64,000 nt of DNA from an uncultured delta proteobacterium (GTDB lineage Bacteria > Myxococcota_A > Polyangia > Palsa-1104): the NCBI GenBank assembly GCA_963785725.1, contig CAWAWS010000033.1:32001-96000 (forward strand). Direction: 5' to 3'. The position numbers are program-made. Of the stretch, positions 39,801 through 48,800 are shown one piece after another (position 1 is the first letter of the stretch; every line of letters starts with the position of its first letter).

Positions 39801-42800
39801 CCCCAGCCGTGCGGCAAGCTGACGATGCCGTGCCCGACCTCGCTCGACACCGCCAGCGGCACCTCGAGCTTGCCGACGCGCGACTCGACCGTCACGCGCT
39901 GCCCGTCGACGAGCCCGCGCGACTCGGCGTCCCGCGGATGCATCAACAACGTGCACGCCTCCGGCCCTTTGACGAGCCGCTGGCTGTTGTGCATCCACGA
40001 GTTGTTGCTGCGCAGGTTGCGGCGACCGATGAGCAGCAGCTGATCGCTCACGCTCGCCGCCGGCGCGTTCAGCTCGGCATCGAGCCGCTCGACGTCGGCC
40101 ACGAACAGCGGCGGCGCCAGCGCGATCCGCCGCGTCTTGGTCTGCAGCAGCTGGCCGAGCCGCGGCTCGAGCGCGCCCAAATCGAGCCCGTGCGGCTTTT
40201 GCAGCAGCTTGGCCACCGACAGCTTGTGCGGACCAAAGCGCAACAGCAGATCGAGCGCGCGCTTCGGACCGCCGGCCAGCTTCAGCGCGCGCAACATGAG
40301 GCTCAGCTTCGGCTCGCGCCGCCCGCCGCCGTGCCGGCGCAGCGCCAGCGCCAGATCGACGAGCACCTGCCAGTCGTGACGCACGCCCGGCGGCGGCTGC
40401 AAGATCGCGCGCGCATAGCGAGCCGCGTTGCGCACCGACAGCGCGTAGAAGGCCAGGTCGTAATGATCGCGCTCGAAGCCGAAGCTCGTCGGCAAGATGA
40501 GGTTCGCGTGGCGCGTCGTCTCGTTGCGATAGAGATCGATCGACACCATGAAGTCGAGCTTGGGCAGCGCCCGCTCCAGCCGCGCGCCGTTGGGCGTCGA
40601 CAAGACGGGGTTGCCGGCGTGCGTGATGAGCGCGCGAATTTGGCCGTCGCCGGGCGTGTCGATCTCCTCGGCCAGCGTCGCGGCGGGCAGCTCGCCGCCG
40701 AACTCGGGCAGGCCGCGCACGCGGCTCTTCCAGGCGCCGAAGTGACCGCGTTCGCCGAGGCGCGACGCGAGGTCGACGAGGTCGGCGGCCGGCGTCGGAA
40801 ACATGGCGCCGCCGGCGCGATCGACGTTGCCGGTGACGATGTTGAGCGCGTTGACGAGCCACGCGGCGATGCCGCCGAACGCCTGCGTGCAGATGCCGAC
40901 GCGGCCGTAGGCGACCGCCGACTTGGCGGCCGCGAGCTCGCGCGCCAGCGTGCGCAGCGTCTCGGCCGCGACGCCGGTCGACGCCGCCACGCGCTCGGGC
41001 GAAAAGCGCAGCGCCAACGCCCGCAAGGTCTCGACGCCGTCGACGCCAAGCGTCAGTCGCTCTAAGCGATCGAGCCGTTCGGCGAAGATCACGTGCAAGA
41101 GCGCCAACAACAGCAGCGCGTCGGCGCCGGGGCGAATGAACAGGTGTTGATCGGCGATGGCCGCCGTCTCCGAGCGCCGCGGGTCGACGACGACGAGCCG
41201 GCCGCCGCGCGCGCGCAGCGCCGCCAGCCGCTTGCCGACGCCGGGCGCCGTCATCAAGCTGCCGTTCGACACCAGCGGATTGGCGCCGAGCACGAGCAGA
41301 AAATCGGTGCGGTCGATGTCCGGGATCGGCAGCGCCAGCTGATGCCCGAACATTTGCAGCGACGCCAACATGTGCGGCAGCTGATCGACCGACGTCGCCG
41401 AAAAGCGGGTGCGCGTGTTGAGCGCCTTGGAGAAGAGCGGCACCGCCATCAGCGCCGTATAGCTGTGCACGGTCGGGTTGCCGAGATAGAGCGCCAGCGC
41501 GTTGCGGCCGTACTGCTTCTGCGCGGCCGCCAAGCGCGCGCCGGCTTCGTCGAGCGCCTCGTCCCACGACACCTCGTGCCAGCGATCGCCGACGCGCTTT
41601 TGCGGCGCGCGCAGGCGGTCGGGATCGTCGTGCATGTCGCGCAGCGCCGCGGCTTTGGGGCAGATGTGGCCGCGACTGAAGGGATCCTCGGCGTCGCCAC
41701 GCACCGACGTGACGCGGTTGTTCTCGACCTCGACCGACAGGCCGCAGACGGCCTCGCAGAGCATGCAGGTATGGAGGCGCGTCTCGACCATGCCTCAGCA
41801 TGCCACGGAGACAGGCCGCTGGCATCCGTTACACAAACCGCTTTTGTTTGTAACGAAACATAGCCGGTTACCGCGATTGGCAATTGCGGCAAAGCGGCGC
41901 GCTATCCGACATTTGGCGAGGAGGCGCGGCAATATGTCGCATTACGGTGCTGTAAAACAGTGATTAAATCGTGCTTGGGGGGCAACCGTTCGCATTTGGG
42001 GGCCCGGTATGTCGGCACGCTCACTCACGCTCTTTGACGAGGGAACGGCCACGTTTGCAAAGCTGGCGACGGCGCTGGAGCTCGGCGACGAACCGTCGGC
42101 GCTCTTCGCTTCGCTGATTTCGCCGCTGGCGGAGCTGTCGACGCAGGAGGCGCCGGCGTGGCCCTCCGATATCAGCGACGATCACACGCCCTTCGAGCTG
42201 TCGGTGGCGCTAAGCGATCGCGGCGCCGAGGCGCGCTGCCTGTTCGAGGCGCGCGGCCTGACGCCCGACGTCGCCGCGCGCGCGACCGCGGCGCGCGAGC
42301 TGAACCAGCGGCTGGCGACGCGGCACGCGCTCGATCTATCGCGCCTCGACACCGTCGCCGACCTGTTCTTGCCGGCCAATCCGCACGGCAGCTGGGCCAT
42401 GTGGCACGCCGTCGCCTTTCGGCCGCAGCGCGTCCCCGAGTTTCGCGTCTATCTCAACCCGCACGCGCGCGGTCCCGGTCGCGCCGGCGCCGTGGTCGAA
42501 GAGGCGCTGCTGCGGCTGGGCTTCTCGGGCGCGTTCCGCACGATCTTGACGCACGCGCTGCGTCGCGGCCCCGAGCTCGACGATCTGCGCTACTTCTCGC
42601 TCGATCTGACGCCGACCGAGGCGCGCGTCAAAGTGTACGTCTTTCACGAAGATGCCGACGCCGAGCTGCTCGAAGAGGCGGCGCGCGGCGCGCACAATTA
42701 CATGCCGGGTGAAGTGCCCGACTTTTGCCGCGCCATGGCCGGCGCCGGCCCGTGGCGCGCGCGGCCGATCGCGACCTGTTACGCCTTCACCGCCGCCGAT

Positions 42801-45800: not shown

Positions 45801-48800
45801 CGCGCCGCTCCTGCCGGCGCTGCTCGCGCTCAACATGCTGCTCGCGACGACGGGCGGCGACAACTTCACCTGCGCCGAGTGGCAGAGCATCCTCGCGCAG
45901 GGCGGCTTCGGCGACGTGCGCGTCTTTCGCAATCACGAGCGCGGCCTACGCGACCTCTTGATTGCGCGCCGAGCGCGCTGACGCCGACCGCTTGATGATC
46001 TCGGCCAAGACCAAGCCGAACAAGACGAACGTCGTAAACAACATGAACGCCGGCTGCAACGACGTGCGATTGGTCGTAATGACCGACATCGACGGCGTCG
46101 TCATATTCAAGTCCTTCAGCTGACTATCGAGGATCGACTTGAAGCCGACATAGGCCATGAAGATGGCGACGACCAAGACATCCGCCATCGACCACTTGCT
46201 CGTCTTGAACGCGATGAATTCGAGCGCCTTTCGCGGTTTGTCCCGCGCATTGCCGAGCAGGACGAGCTGCGTCGCAATCAGCTTCGAGATCGGCAACACG
46301 ATGCTGAACAGCAAGATCAGCGCGCCCACGAACAATGAATCGGGCGCATGATTGGCGAACAATGTATGCACCACCTGCATGATGCTCTTCGACTGATAGA
46401 ACAGCACTTGATCGTCGAAGCGCAGCGGCTCGCCCAACAAGACGAAGTCGACGCGCTGAATGCGGGCGTCGATCTCCATCATCGGCGACGCCAACCCCGC
46501 CAGCAGCGTCACCAACGCCAACAGCACCGACATGACGAAGAACGGCCTTTCGATCCAATCGAGGTCGCGGCGGTAATGAACGACGATCCATAAGCCGACG
46601 GTCAATATCAGGCTGACGACCAAGGCAAAGCTGTACCAATAGACGACGCGCTGTAATTCCTGAGCGAGCGCGGTCGTGCGTCGATTGAATTCACCGAGAT
46701 CCTTTACACCGAACTTCACGAAATAACGTCGTTGGTTATTCAGATCGATCGTCGTATCGCGCGTCTCGGCCGCATATTCGTTGAGCTTGCCGATCGCCAC
46801 CGTCTTCAATTCGCGGCGCGTCTCGGGTTTATTCGCCTCCGCGAGCGCGGCGTCGACCAGCAACGGAATCTTGTCGTGCGGGATCAACACACCAATCGCC
46901 GCCTTGCCGATCTTGCCTTTCACCGTCGGCGGCTGCATCTGCTCGACCTGCGCCAACAGCGCCGCCACTTCCTTCGCCAGCGCCGCGTGCAGCAGCTGCT
47001 GCTGTTTGTGCGTCAACGAGAAGTGCTCGATCTTGTGCGCCACTATCTTGCGTAAATGCTCGGTCCAGATATCGACCGACAACAGGCCATATTCGATGCT
47101 GTTCACTTCGCTATATTGCGCCTTCACGATCGCGCGCTCTTGCGAACGGCGATAAACCTGCACCGCGCACCCAATATCGATCGCGAACAACGCCGCCAAG
47201 CATGCGAGGATCGCGCCGCCGAACCAGCGTGACTTCATCGTGAGGCGGGATCGTCGCTGAATTCATAGACGCTGAACGGCGCGTGCAAGACCGGCATGGC
47301 CACGTTGCGCACCGGAATTCCGCCCGGCGTAAGGCCGCGCTCCGTCCCTTTGTGCGCGTGCCCGTGAATCGCCAACTGCACATTGGTCTCGTCGATGACG
47401 TCGCTCAACAAATACGAGCCGAGAAACGGATAGAGCTCCAATTTCTCGCCGACCAGCGTGTCGCGCACCGGCGAATAATGCGTCAACGCCACGCGAATGT
47501 CGCAGCGCAGCCGTGCCAAGGATTCGCCGAGCGCGTCGGCCGCTTTGCGGGTGACGGCGATGAACGCCTTCATCGCGTCCTCGCCGAACGCGCTCGCCGA
47601 GGCGCCGCTGAAGCCGCCGCCGAAGCCTTTGGCGCCGGCGATTCCCACGCGCCGGCCGCGCACCTCAATCGTCGTCGACTCGCCTTCGAGCACGCAAATG
47701 CCGGCTCTCTCCATCATTCGCCGAATCGGGATTTGCTGCTCCAAGTTGTAATCGTGATTCCCCAAGATCGCGACCACGGGAACGCCGGCGCCTTTGAGCG
47801 GCGACACCAGCGCTTCCGCCTCTTGCAGCGCGCCGTGCTGGGTCAAATCGCCGGCGAAGAGCAAGAGGTCGGACTCGGCGGCGAGCCGCGCGCAGCCGGC
47901 CACCCACTCCGGCGACGGCCGATCGCCGGCGTGCACGTCGCCGATGGCGGCGATGCGAATCATCGAATGCGCTCGTGCCGCGGCGGGTGCAGCGGCCGAT
48001 AAACGGTGAGCCGATTGACGATCGTCAAGTGCGGCGCATGCTCGCGCGCAATCTGCTCGGCGACGATCAGCAGCTCGTGCGACGCCAATTCGCCGTGCAA
48101 ATGCAGCACGTCGGCGACGATGCGCACTTCGATGTCGAGCACGTTGAGGCGCGGGTCATCGGCGAGCGCGTCGCGAATGTGGCTCGCCAAGTGCTCGGGA
48201 ACGGTAGAGCGGCCCATACTGGGGATTTCGGCACGGAACCGCCGCGTGCAAGCCGCGCACGCGCGACCGTCGCCGCCGCTAAGTAAACAGCTGTTTACTA
48301 GACCGCGTCGCCTGGCGCGTCATCCGTCGCGCGGCGCGGTGCTGCTTAGTTGGTGCTGCAGAGCTTGCGGAGACGGGTCACGAGCTCCTCGGCGGTCTCC
48401 GACTTCGAGATCCAGCCGTCGGCCTGCGTCTCGATGGCGAGCGCGCGCAGCCGCGATTCGTCGCACGCCGAGAACAGCACGAAGCGCGTGCCGGGCACGG
48501 CATAACGCCGCGCGATCGCCAGCAGCCGATCGCCCGACAGCGCCGGGATTTCCACGTCGAGCAGGACGACGTCGGGCGCGAACGAGCGCACCAAGTTGGA
48601 GACGCCGAACGAGCCCGCGCTCGTCGCCACGTCGAAGCCGAACGACTTGAGCTGCCGCGAAGTCAAATCGAGCTGCTGCTGATTGTCGTCGACGATCAAG
48701 ATGCGCAACTTCCGCTCACTAAGCATGCATACGCCTTGTGGACAAATGCTTTCGAATGACGCCGAGCAGCTTATCACGCTCGACCGGCTTGGTTAGATAG

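Follow-up and report, generated by a model that had tools for sequence, protein, structure and literature searches.

Bacterial tryptophan dimethylallyltransferases, such as the 6-DMATS enzymes (6ZRY/6ZRX), the IptA-type 7W8U and PriB (5INJ), are stand-alone proteins of about 360–400 aa that have the ABBA fold and carry the DDHTPxE and RxKxY motifs. The heme-oxygenase-like diiron oxidases (HDOs) of solved structure catalyse very different reactions. Within the 3-His/3-carboxylate group HrmI, BesC and CADD act on lysine derivatives or on the protein's own tyrosine. According to a 2026 review, HrmI holds the backbone of its substrate by electrostatic interactions and oxidises it at the side-chain end, and the product of BesC is an intact amino acid (4-Cl-allylglycine); both enzymes oxidise an amino acid distally and leave its head group in place. 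UndA, in the same review, is an HDO that binds a carboxylate on Fe1 and decarboxylates it. AetD and SktA receive a ring-substituted, halogenated tryptophan from the enzyme before them in a small cyanobacterial cluster; as described, no other HDOs are known to use tryptophan substrates, and both destroy the amino-acid head. SznF, as described, has its HDO fused to a cupin, an earlier example of an HDO that shares one chain with another catalytic domain from its own pathway.

Here we describe a locus in which a prenyltransferase and an HDO meet in one polypeptide. It lies in a 64,000-nucleotide stretch of DNA from an uncultured delta proteobacterium (the window; all start and end positions below are window coordinates) and suggests a small, so far unstudied pathway that makes a prenylated indole compound. 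In agreement with the survey's finding that the fusion is unstudied, a literature search found no published description of a DMATS-HDO fusion.

A Prenyltransferase Fused to a Diiron Oxidase

Gene 1 (P0001; 42009..43775, + strand) encodes a DMATS-HDO fusion protein of 588 aa, recognised from its ORF, Pfam, a PDB search, a profile and a structural model. Both Pfam models exceed their cut-offs on this one ORF, as the survey's finding had it: PF11991 (Trp_DMAT) with 44.6 bits against a cut-off of 25 (residues 46–224) and PF14518 (Haem_oxygenas_2) with 59.5 bits against 28.9 (residues 407–576). The AlphaFold2 model (pLDDT 94.6, pTM 0.94), which is confident also in the inter-domain arrangement, and its fold matches independently reproduce those reported before. 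As the computation shows, gene 1 is a two-domain enzyme that keeps, in both halves, the residues required by each family.

The DMATS-type (ABBA) aromatic prenyltransferase domain (residues ~4–353; 42018..43067, + strand) is delimited by the match to 6ZRY and by invariant columns. A phmmer search of the PDB returned the two structures already named for the N-half, 6ZRY (E 3.6e-65) and 6ZRX (E 5.9e-65), and VIA-align superposed residues 4–353 on 6ZRY with Z 47.0, rmsd 1.6 and 38% identity to 6-DMATS, a level that does not fix the regiochemistry. In a 37-sequence alignment the DDHTPxE (57–63) and RxKxY (206–210) motifs are invariant, as are R76, Y148 and Y341. What gene 1 adds to the known stand-alone enzymes is a C-terminal 228-aa diiron oxidase.

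This HDO domain (residues ~361–588; 43089..43772, + strand) is assigned from PF14518, the profile, the fold and the ligands. A 37-sequence profile recovers the earlier C-half matches to BesC (7TWA, 9.8e-8) and CADD (8VA9/1RCW, 2.6e-5), and VIA-align of residues ~361–588 gives HrmI Z 23.6, CADD 21.8, BesC 19.2, FlcD 19.0 and AetD 15.3, with an identity to solved HDOs of only 13–18% (14–18% for HrmI, BesC and CADD). Like these last three enzymes, none of which is fused to a prenyltransferase, the half has a seven-helix fold and ligand motifs in register with theirs, and its E-x9-H spacing (E441-x9-H451) matches that of HrmI. The 3-His/3-carboxylate ligand set (E441, H451, E505, H536, E540, H543), as against 3H/4C in SznF, is the same in all 37 relatives, and so is H383; all seven residues singled out earlier are therefore invariant again. 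Among 15 HDO halves that include a stand-alone homologue, the six ligands are still invariant and H383 drops to at least 90%. In a sister clade (L077) the C-terminal domain is still clearly homologous (hhalign 98.6%), but E441 and the H536/E540/H543 motif are gone, so the HDO domain is able to persist without a metal site. The order of domains in action presumably also departs from SznF, whose cupin is described as acting after the HDO, whereas the prenyltransferase would act before it here.

A protein search with gene 1 gave 195 matches, as before, and both Pfam domains are present in 93 of the 120 listed. The species-genome scan found 79 DMATS loci, 50 of which are fusions, and these numbers differ from the earlier count of 36 in 73. 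In 49 of the 50 related fusion loci the two halves lie in a single unbroken frame, with no stop, and both keep their catalytic motifs, which supports the view of a natural fusion maintained by selection. The previously noticed relative that fuses DMATS to Aminotran_5 was also seen again; it is P0103, a single sequence on a single contig, in which the DMATS domain shares one chain with an orthologue of gene 2 (54% identity).

Genes Downstream and Upstream of the Fusion

Gene 2 (43772..44923, + strand; 383 aa), whose start overlaps the gene 1 stop (ATGA), encodes a kynureninase-like class-V PLP enzyme. An Arg-rich off-frame ORF at 43798..44886, which simple ORF calling puts forward here, was rejected as gene 2. 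The earlier class-V assignment is borne out by Aminotran_5, the best Pfam match, by KYNU_C and by the best solved relative, kynureninase 1QZ9 (E 8.5e-27, residues 11–366). Gene 2 shares with kynureninase the KYNU_C domain and the residues K213 (the PLP Lys), D187 and R359, which are at least 95% conserved in 42 orthologues and align with the kynureninase Lys, Asp and Arg (R359 with the carboxylate-binding Arg). The residue preceding the PLP Lys is His in gene 2 and Tyr in kynureninase. The score against the NCBIfam kynureninase model TIGR01814, 75.5 bits, is far below the equivalog cut-off of 246.4 and similar to that for SufS-type desulfurases (89.1 bits). Unlike kynureninase, gene 2 belongs to a separate family that goes with the DMATS-HDO fusion. 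The PLP gene lies directly downstream of the fusion in 41 of the 45 loci with enough sequence and is missing in four, and no class-V PLP gene was found at any of the 29 DMATS loci without a catalytic HDO, two of which have Beta_elim_lyase, another PLP family. Computation shows that fusion and PLP gene are co-inherited. Three Chamaesiphon genomes with the fusion hold no PLP orthologue anywhere, the best matches having 29–30% identity.

Gene 3 (44920..45981, + strand; 353 aa), identified by Pfam and alignment, encodes a Methyltransf_2-family SAM methyltransferase with a dimerisation domain, and its start overlaps the gene 2 stop (ATGA). In 11 of 38 loci the gene next after the PLP gene encodes a methyltransferase; when any position within the locus is counted, 13 of 38 have one. 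Of the conserved three-gene cassette proposed earlier, the fusion followed by the PLP gene (41/45) thus stands and the methyltransferase (11/38) does not: the conserved core is two genes and the methyltransferase is optional. The designation of gene 3 as an O-methyltransferase holds as far as the Methyltransf_2 family; however, the His of the MmcR HVLHDWDD motif is replaced by Gly (residue 258), and none of the 15 cassette-linked methyltransferase copies has His at the MmcR LHDW position, so that the 'O-' is an unproven label taken from the Pfam family name.

On the other side, gene 1 shares the intergenic region 41826..42008 (+ strand; delimited by ORF layout and sequence) with a divergent ORF, 39087..41825 (− strand). 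This region presumably holds the cassette promoter; a sigma-70 consensus scan of it found 0 sites, a result that is uninformative for this kind of organism.

A Proposed Pathway and Its Alternatives

A pathway to a prenylated, tryptophan-derived small molecule is likely. The earlier reading, in which tryptophan is prenylated and then remodelled by oxidation, is a reasonable one. In the best explanation genes 1–3 form a translationally coupled operon for such a small metabolite; taken as a whole, i.e., operon, steps and control by the sensor described below, it has about an even chance of being right, and the specific order of steps and the bond cleavages are less likely than not to be right as given. 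In the first step the DMATS half, whose closest relatives of solved structure are 6-DMATS enzymes, would dimethylallylate L-tryptophan on its indole ring, with DMAPP as the donor. The HDO half, with O2, would then oxidise prenyl-tryptophan at its indole or prenyl end, while the alpha-amino-acid head, by analogy with HrmI and BesC, would be anchored away from the metals and stay intact. Next, the kynureninase-like PLP enzyme would act on the head left in place and most likely break the C-beta/C-gamma bond, releasing alanine (or pyruvate and ammonia) together with a prenylated aromatic product; this cleavage is a guess from the nearest relative, as gene 2 falls short of the kynureninase cut-off and its SufS-type score is similar. 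Finally, in this genome and about a third of its relatives, the SAM methyltransferase would methylate the product, the target atom being left unnamed. Counted in favour of the best explanation were the ATGA overlaps joining genes 1–3, the PLP linkage, the conserved PLP-enzyme residues, the ligand invariance, the ranking of HrmI, CADD and BesC above AetD among the fold matches, and P0103. Counted against it were the low identity of the HDO half to solved HDOs, the His before the PLP Lys, the four fusion loci that lack the PLP gene, the below-cut-off score of the DMATS subfamily model and the single occurrence of P0103.

The nearest analogy in function, AetD and SktA, suggests another, unlikely course, in which the HDO half would bind prenyl-tryptophan head-first on Fe1 and fragment the alanyl side chain. 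The products would be a prenyl-indole nitrile, aldehyde or methyl compound, with cyanide, glyoxylate or CO2 as possible by-products, and the PLP enzyme would be left with a side role, e.g., by-product handling or substrate making. Prenyl-indole-3-carbaldehydes (indiacens), known from myxobacteria, and the Chamaesiphon genomes that lack a PLP orthologue suit this course. F414, conserved in at least 90%, aligns with the CADD 'FPkyL' position, and AetD is described as likewise having Phe in place of the Fe1-ligating Glu on its auxiliary helix. Moreover, AetD and SktA, the HDOs shown on tryptophan substrates, each work alone, and an HDO acting on tryptophan in their way destroys the head and leaves nothing for the PLP enzyme, which counts against the best explanation. 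However, AetD is the lowest of the named fold matches (HrmI being the highest), and the HDO-half profile gave no match to AetD at E <= 1. The core helix 1 of AetD and SktA has D-x2-H (D76/H79 in AetD, as described) and not the E-x9-H found here and in HrmI; both enzymes are stand-alone and have a halogenase, not a prenyltransferase, as a partner. If the head group were destroyed, the tight PLP linkage would also go without explanation.

It is improbable that the substrate is something other than free L-tryptophan, i.e., that the aromatic compound prenylated is tyrosine, kynurenine, a side-chain-less indole or a peptide-bound residue, whose scaffold would then pass to the HDO and PLP enzymes. 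The fold matches of the DMATS half do include enzymes with other acceptors, namely L-Tyr (8DAY), histidine (9IIA) and indolactam (4YLA), and the cyclic-dipeptide enzymes 3O2K and 4E0T, and its scores are modest, both in Pfam and against the NCBIfam DMATS subfamily model (101.3 bits, below the cut-off of 163.85). Yet the six best sequence matches are all bacterial tryptophan prenyltransferases (6-DMATS-type entries and PriB), and DDHTPxE aligns exactly with 6ZRY.

That the PLP enzyme acts first is very improbable. Prenyl-tryptophan would then be transaminated to the alpha-keto acid and oxidatively decarboxylated or cleaved at the carboxylate by the HDO half, as the rank of Aminotran_5 among the Pfam matches and the UndA precedent might suggest; however, transaminase families score far below kynureninase and desulfurase families for gene 2 (NCBIfam), the DMATS and HDO steps should be consecutive because the two domains are fused, and the persistence of the fusion in three genomes without the PLP orthologue fits a PLP step after the fusion protein, not before it. 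It is scarcely credible that the HDO half, instead of being a substrate-turnover oxidase, has a structural, non-catalytic role or works as a self-sacrificing unit in the manner of CADD, as the ligand-free domain of L077 and the rank of CADD among the matches might suggest, against six ligands invariant throughout the clade of the window and a PLP gene linked to that clade and no other.

An Adjoining NosP/NahK-Like Module

The cassette often adjoins a haem-based gas-sensor signalling module, a recurrent neighbourhood that is new here and was not mentioned in the survey's finding. Twenty of the 50 fusion loci, that of the window among them, encode within 7 kb three further proteins, namely a NosP-like FIST protein, a NahK-like hybrid kinase and a tetrahaem lipoprotein, and the arrangement of these genes varies among loci. 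The solo FIST-FIST_C protein gene (50818..51984, − strand; Pfam FIST and FIST_C, NCBIfam, GC3 frame and start codon) matches the NCBIfam NosP model over its full length (E 2.8e-43, 148 bits, against a cut-off of 450); 19 of the 50 fusion loci have a strict orthologue of it. The stop of this NosP-like gene is overlapped by the GTG start (GTGA) of a NahK/ErcS-like hybrid histidine kinase gene (48719..50821, − strand; Pfam, NCBIfam and GC3 frame analysis) with HisKA, HATPase_c and three receiver domains, 209.5 bits in NCBIfam (cut-off 400), and orthologues of 56–63% identity in 17 of 50 loci. In the nitric-oxide-responsive two-component module NosP-NahK, as described, a solo FIST-FIST_C gene likewise immediately precedes a hybrid histidine kinase gene and is coupled to it in translation; unlike there, a tetrahaem lipoprotein is included, a biosynthetic cassette adjoins and both proteins score below the NCBIfam cut-offs. 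The module probably controls, or responds to, the proposed prenyl-tryptophan pathway.

The tetrahaem lipoprotein gene, 'A' (52007..53817, − strand), was delineated by sequence analysis and orthologues and encodes, in order, a lipoprotein-like signal, a ~470-aa beta-sandwich region that matched no known family and a tetrahaem cytochrome c domain. In the window a frameshift in this gene separates haem motif 1 (nt 52383) from motifs 2–4. Depending on whether orthology is judged strictly or loosely, 16 to 25 of the 50 loci have an orthologue of it next to the fusion.

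The fusion protein and its cassette

Gene 1 of the cassette (42009..43775, plus strand) encodes a 588-aa protein that carries two catalytically equipped domains within a single chain. A DMATS-type prenyltransferase and a heme-oxygenase-like diiron oxidase (HDO) had been reported on this one ORF by the survey's finding, and this is confirmed by Pfam with both scores over their cut-offs (Trp_DMAT, PF11991, 44.6 bits against 25; Haem_oxygenas_2, 59.5 bits against 28.9). Each of the survey's numbers that was re-run, including PDB matches, fold scores and invariant residues, was closely reproduced; the observation itself is confirmed, and its interpretation as a whole is partly supported. 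AlphaFold2, provided with an alignment of 37 relatives, modelled the fusion with a pLDDT of 94.6 and a pTM of 0.94. A structural search with this model detected the ABBA prenyltransferase barrel at residues 4-353 (6-DMATS entry 6ZRY, Z 47.0, rmsd 1.6, 344 aligned residues), eleven more DMATS-family chains being matched at Z 30.6-42.0, and by sequence the N-terminal half matches 6ZRY at 3.6e-65 and a second 6-DMATS entry, 6ZRX, at 5.9e-65. Its score against the NCBIfam subfamily TIGR03429 (101.3 bits) lies under the cut-off of 163.85. D57, D58, P61, E63, R76, Y148, R206, K208, Y210 and Y341 are invariant in 37/37 relatives, as are the DDHTPxE and RxKxY motifs across the 37-sequence alignment, and DDHTPfE of gene 1 aligns with DDHTPvE of 6ZRY. 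In DMATS enzymes, as known from the FgaPT2 literature, the conserved Glu touches the indole N-H, while basic and Tyr residues serve the diphosphate.

The second gene (43772..44923, plus strand) shares the reading frame of the long ORF 42725..44923 and begins at ATG 43772, in an ATGA overlap with the TGA of gene 1; gene 3 (44920..45981, plus strand) overlaps the stop codon of gene 2 in the same ATGA manner. Since opposite-strand genes flank them on either side (39087..41825, minus, upstream; 45946..47238, minus, downstream), genes 1-3 form a single compact, translationally coupled unit. A plain ORF list offers 43798..44886 as the second gene, a candidate rejected on its translation, which is Arg/Ala-rich off-frame junk. 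Upstream of the cassette lie three large ORFs of 511 aa (35004..36539, minus), 825 aa (36559..39036, plus) and 912 aa (39087..41825, minus), none of which has a Pfam match, nor the last an NCBIfam match; in the ORF clustering of 50 fusion loci they do not recur adjoining the fusion elsewhere. Scans of 41600..46300 were uninformative, both for sigma-70 promoters (0 promoter-like sites) and for terminators (2 minus-strand sites that resemble terminators, versus 3.2 expected). GC content is 70-72% in the cassette versus 58-72% in the flanks, so that a clear island signal is absent. The sequencing-run look-up listed no RNA run, and nine soil-metagenome DNA runs contain 5-24% of the sampled words.

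The predicted metal site of the oxidase half

Residues ~361-588 of the model form a seven-helix heme-oxygenase-like bundle, for which the structural search returned HrmI (Z 23.6), CADD (21.8), BesC (19.2) and FlcD (19.0), and, lower, UndA (17.0), SznF (15.9) and AetD (15.3); all exceed the Z of ~13-14 that is typical of unrelated helical bundles according to the search tool's own note. By sequence, the C-terminal half of the 37-relative profile reaches BesC (7TWA) at 9.8e-8 and CADD at 2.6e-5. The metal ligands of HDOs lie on core helices 1-3 and include the H-x3-E/D-x2-H motif, as defined in the 2026 HDO review and the AetD paper, and the review gives the set of three His and three carboxylates as the majority type. 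Such a set, composed of E441, H451, E505, H536, E540 and H543, is invariant in 37/37 relatives of the fusion and in 15/15 sequences of a second set of HDO halves, H383 being also invariant in the 37-sequence alignment. In residue-level alignments E441/H451, E505 and H536-x3-E540-x2-H543 line up with the metal-binding motifs known from BesC, CADD and HrmI, and the spacing is identical in HrmI (DEMGNGKPAEVH) and in the fusion family (DELGEGDFSRAH). The earlier statement that this half keeps its His/Glu metal ligands is borne out.

The core helix 1 ligands of AetD are D76 and H79 (D-x2-H), and the substrate head group ligates Fe1, as described in the AetD paper. These AetD-type ligands are absent from the fusion, which has E441-x9-H451, the HrmI-type spacing, instead of D-x2-H. 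The profile of the HDO half gave no match to AetD (8TWN) at E <= 1, and the fold score of AetD is lower than those of seven other named HDOs (HrmI, CADD, BesC, FlcD, UndA, RohS and SznF). Profile matches, the spacing of the ligand motif and fold scores all place the HDO half with HrmI, BesC and CADD rather than with AetD.

The PLP enzyme and the methyltransferase

The class-V PLP assignment of gene 2 (383 aa) was reproduced by Pfam (Aminotran_5 and KYNU_C). Among solved structures the closest to it is Pseudomonas kynureninase (1QZ9, 8.5e-27, residues 11-366), and cysteine desulfurases come next at about 1e-16. K213 (the PLP lysine), D187 and R359 align with the kynureninase set that includes the pyridine-binding Asp and the carboxylate-binding Arg, and they are at least 95% conserved across 42 fusion-linked orthologues; this Lys/Asp/Arg set is shared throughout the class-V fold and is not kynureninase-specific. 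The position before the PLP lysine is His in gene 2, whereas in kynureninase it is Tyr. Gene 2 scores under the NCBIfam cut-offs for the kynureninase equivalog (TIGR01814, 75.5 bits versus 246.4) and for a SufS/IscS-type cysteine desulfurase (SufS, 89.1 bits versus 475.1). Obligatory desulfurase-type chemistry was rejected, as the sole candidate cysteine, C365, is 80-95% conserved and not invariant. From these comparisons it was concluded that gene 2 forms a family of its own. Complex prediction for the fusion and the PLP enzyme scored 0.00 in both runs, which were made without controls and speak neither for nor against binding.

Gene 3 (353 aa) was previously named an O-methyltransferase. The Methyltransf_2 family (PF00891, 103.2 bits) and the dimerisation domain (PF08100, 57.2 bits) stand, but the "O-" label is only putative. 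The His of the LHDW motif is the catalytic base for O-methylation; where MmcR has HVLHDWDD, gene 3 has GVLGDFDD, with Gly (within residues 256-262) in place of this His, which was found in 0/15 cassette-linked methyltransferases. The closest solved relatives, RedM, DsyB (MTHB methyltransferase) and SibL, which we take to be N-, S- and C-methyltransferases, likewise lack the LHDW His, and thus the methyl acceptor atom is not fixed by the family.

Distribution and gene linkage

The protein search returned 195 matches. At least 93 of them, among the 120 listed, have the two Pfam domains together in a protein of ~590-690 aa; Chamaesiphon, Byssovorax and Polyangium are among the source names of the fusion matches listed. 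The family comprises about 90 sequence clusters from two phyla. A one-genome-per-species scan with a 12-sequence alignment gave 79 loci, in which four modules were mapped by tblastn. DMATS and HDO are adjacent on the same strand at 50 of these loci, and at 49 of the 50 the fusion lies in a single stop-free frame. The sole exception is locus L039, where a frame break falls within the DMATS part (L039:7001-8664).

The PLP gene lies directly 3' of the fusion at 41 of the 45 loci with at least 1300 nt of downstream sequence, and it occurs in 0/29 DMATS loci lacking a catalytic HDO (tblastn). The methyltransferase directly follows the PLP gene at 11/38 loci with enough further sequence (13/38 if any position within the locus is counted). 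Because of these counts, fusion and PLP enzyme are regarded as the conserved unit and the methyltransferase as accessory, so that from the three-gene cassette of the survey's finding the pair is retained, but the third gene is not. The PLP gene is missing at four fusion loci, namely L075, where a P450 takes its place after the fusion, and three Chamaesiphon loci (L036, L049, L051). In the three Chamaesiphon genomes the orthologue is missing genome-wide, the best matches having 29-30% identity versus 48-49% for cyanobacterial PLP orthologues. A single sequence, P0103, fuses a DMATS domain straight to an orthologue of gene 2 (54% identity); a metagenome scan for its context gave 82 pattern matches, of which none could be confirmed.

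Across 40 genomes related to that of the window the fusion has a patchy distribution: it is complete in G015, a member of the same order, present in pieces in G012, a member of the same family, and was not found in the four same-genus genomes. The fusion tree, midpoint-rooted, was built with a 450-aa alignment filter that excluded three of the 50 loci. In it nine cyanobacterial and Sericytochromatia fusions form a single 100%-supported clade among myxobacterial sequences, which suggests that the fusion was transferred between phyla.

A proposed order of reactions

The order of the fused domains argues that the HDO half takes the DMATS product. The DMATS half would prenylate first, with tryptophan as the putative substrate, and the HDO half would then oxidise the prenylated substrate at its indole or its prenyl end. 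The PLP enzyme may next remove the alanyl unit, and methylation would come last and be optional. Kynureninase, the closest relative of gene 2, cleaves the C-beta/C-gamma bond, and a PLP enzyme requires an alpha-amino acid as its substrate. The affinity of the HDO half to HrmI, BesC and CADD, together with this need for an amino acid, favours prenylation, an oxidation that acts on the indole or the prenyl end, and PLP chemistry, in that order. The three Chamaesiphon genomes, in which the PLP orthologue is missing and the fusion kept, suit a PLP step that comes last.

In the 2026 HDO review, HrmI is described as anchoring the substrate backbone electrostatically and oxidising the end of the side chain, a tail-in mode, and the product of BesC as an intact amino acid. 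The main rival is that the HDO half fragments its substrate as do AetD and SktA, the HDOs known to act on tryptophan substrates. In this head-in mode the amine and carboxylate of the substrate ligate Fe1 of AetD, which breaks the head group down, and its homologue SktA removes the side chain to give skatole, cyanide and bicarbonate. The E441-x9-H451 spacing, the missing profile match and the lowest Z of AetD tend to speak against an HDO of this type, and so does the obligate PLP partner, which needs the very alpha-amino acid that AetD/SktA-type chemistry destroys. The order that ends with the PLP enzyme is hence preferred over fragmentation.

A literature search, outside which lay most subscription journals as well as supplements with possible similarity networks, found no paper joining a DMATS or other prenyltransferase to an HDO; "prenyl", "DMATS", "fusion" and "fused" are not mentioned in the 2026 HDO mini-review, and "prenyl" and "fusion" are absent from both the SktA paper and the AetD preprint. 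Functions have been validated for only about a dozen HDOs, nearly all of which brought chemistry new to diiron enzymes (2026 HDO review). In the present family the fused DMATS domain strongly hints at the HDO substrate, usually the hardest part to guess, and the fixed PLP partner should tell what the oxidation leaves behind. Solving the family would extend the HDO repertoire by one reaction and establish a new class-V PLP activity, and would probably uncover a prenylated indole metabolite, hitherto unknown, that soil myxobacteria and cyanobacteria make.

The neighbouring sensor-kinase module

For the neighbourhood, every ORF at the 50 fusion loci entered a clustering that was compared with the window, and GC3 frame analysis and NCBIfam served to resolve the three recurrent window genes. 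A module at 48719..53817 (minus strand) lies 2.7 kb downstream of the cassette and convergent with it. Gene "A" (53817..~52007, minus) combines a lipoprotein-type signal, ~470 aa that belong to no known family and a tail of the tetrahaem cytochrome c type; 17 orthologues carry four CxxCH motifs, and three further ones carry three. In the window it is frameshifted at ~52320..52380 (minus): CxxCH motif 1 (nt 52383) is in the gene's frame, while motifs 2-4 (52313, 52205, 52151) are in another frame, which stops near 52007. The frameshift, whether genuine or introduced by the assembly, gives rise to a spurious 999-aa ORF in the ORF list, running A into the FIST gene. The model of protein A (pLDDT 78.3) has generic beta-sandwich matches only (best Z 7.5), and no functional lead came from it.

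Next stands a NosP-like solo FIST-FIST_C protein (51984..50818, minus; Pfam FIST and FIST_C), which matches NCBIfam NosP NF041558 over residues 2-373 of 377 (E 2.8e-43) with 148.4 bits, under the cut-off of 450. Its stop codon is overlapped by the GTG start of a hybrid kinase (50821..48719, minus) with HisKA, HATPase and three receiver domains, a match to the "near-NosP" NahK/ErcS family (NF041832) with 209.5 bits, under the cut-off of 400. NosP is a solo FIST-FIST_C protein that works with the kinase NahK in NO-responsive signalling, as stated in a review. A solo FIST-FIST_C protein stands beside a hybrid kinase in both systems.

By strict orthology A is present at 16 of the 50 fusion loci, the NosP-like protein at 19 and the kinase at 17, and 20/50 have one or more of the three within 7 kb of the fusion, counts that are inflated by kinship among the loci. 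The module is collinear upstream at eight loci with all three genes and at two with sensor and kinase only, and in 7/8 of the former the kinase ends ~0.5-1 kb before the fusion; elsewhere it is divergent upstream, split around the cassette or, as in the window, downstream and convergent. On the tree of 48 fusion proteins the module label requires 11 changes, at least seven of them being forced by well-supported branches. The cyanobacterial and Sericytochromatia clade is devoid of the module. In genomes related to that of the window the module shows the same patchiness as the fusion: G012 has it on the same contig as its fusion, G015 has the fusion without it, and G032, covered for all but 8 kb, has the module with no fusion detected. 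A functional tie between the cassette and the NosP/NahK-like module is likely, and this link to a putative haem-sensor signalling module is previously unnoticed. If functional, it would give a handle on the stimuli of the poorly understood NosP-type sensor family outside pathogens.

Could the cassette be the chemical arm of a signalling circuit? Its output would be perceived by the NosP-like haem sensor and passed to the NahK-like kinase, with the tetrahaem lipoprotein as redox partner; we consider this joint reading rather unlikely. The output would be a prenylated indole-derived signal or a small haem ligand from the diiron chemistry, such as cyanide or a nitrogen oxide species. If true, a secondary-metabolite enzyme and a haem-based gas-sensor pathway would be newly paired, and retained across deep Polyangia branches. 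In Chamaesiphon an 1807-aa protein with Pkinase, AAA_16, GAF, HisKA and HATPase domains lies 3' of the fusion on the same strand (L036:8933-14353); similar giant ORFs were found by clustering in L034, L049 and L051, the Pfam domains being from L036 only. Under the same signalling circuit, this giant GAF-containing sensor kinase would be a parallel solution.

Stand-alone relatives and other DMATS partners

Short proteins related to the HDO half but standing alone were also sought; of the eight matches, seven lie on contigs of less than 1.5 kb and are probably fragments. The single clear stand-alone copy is a 250-aa HDO of Aetokthonos hydrillicola, 44% identical to the C-terminal half (L078:6968-7720). 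A histidine kinase, a response regulator and an acyltransferase lie beside it; DMATS, PLP and other biosynthetic genes are absent there. This protein is distinct from AetD, given that AetD's PDB entry is missed by the HDO-half profile. In a sister DMATS clade (L077:8001-8675, also L085) the C-terminal domain is plainly an HDO homologue (hhalign 98.6%). In L077 it has lost E441 and the H-x3-E-x2-H metal motif, and the domain in this clade is probably non-catalytic. The C-terminal extensions of two "non-fusion" DMATS proteins were also compared with the HDO profile; that of L035 has no similarity (probability 0.4%), and that of L053 matches weakly, over the first helix only (36%).

An indiacen-type product was considered, and the literature search found no biosynthesis paper for it. 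A Beta_elim_lyase-family PLP enzyme occurs at 2/29 non-fusion and 1/50 fusion loci. A cytokinin-dehydrogenase-like FAD oxidase (FAD_binding_4 and Cytokin-bind), not found in the window's genome (88% complete), occurs at 23/29 non-fusion DMATS loci versus 11/50 fusion loci; it is the usual neighbour when a catalytic HDO is absent, as at L011:9900-11195, L080:8051-9586 and L035:10004-11536.
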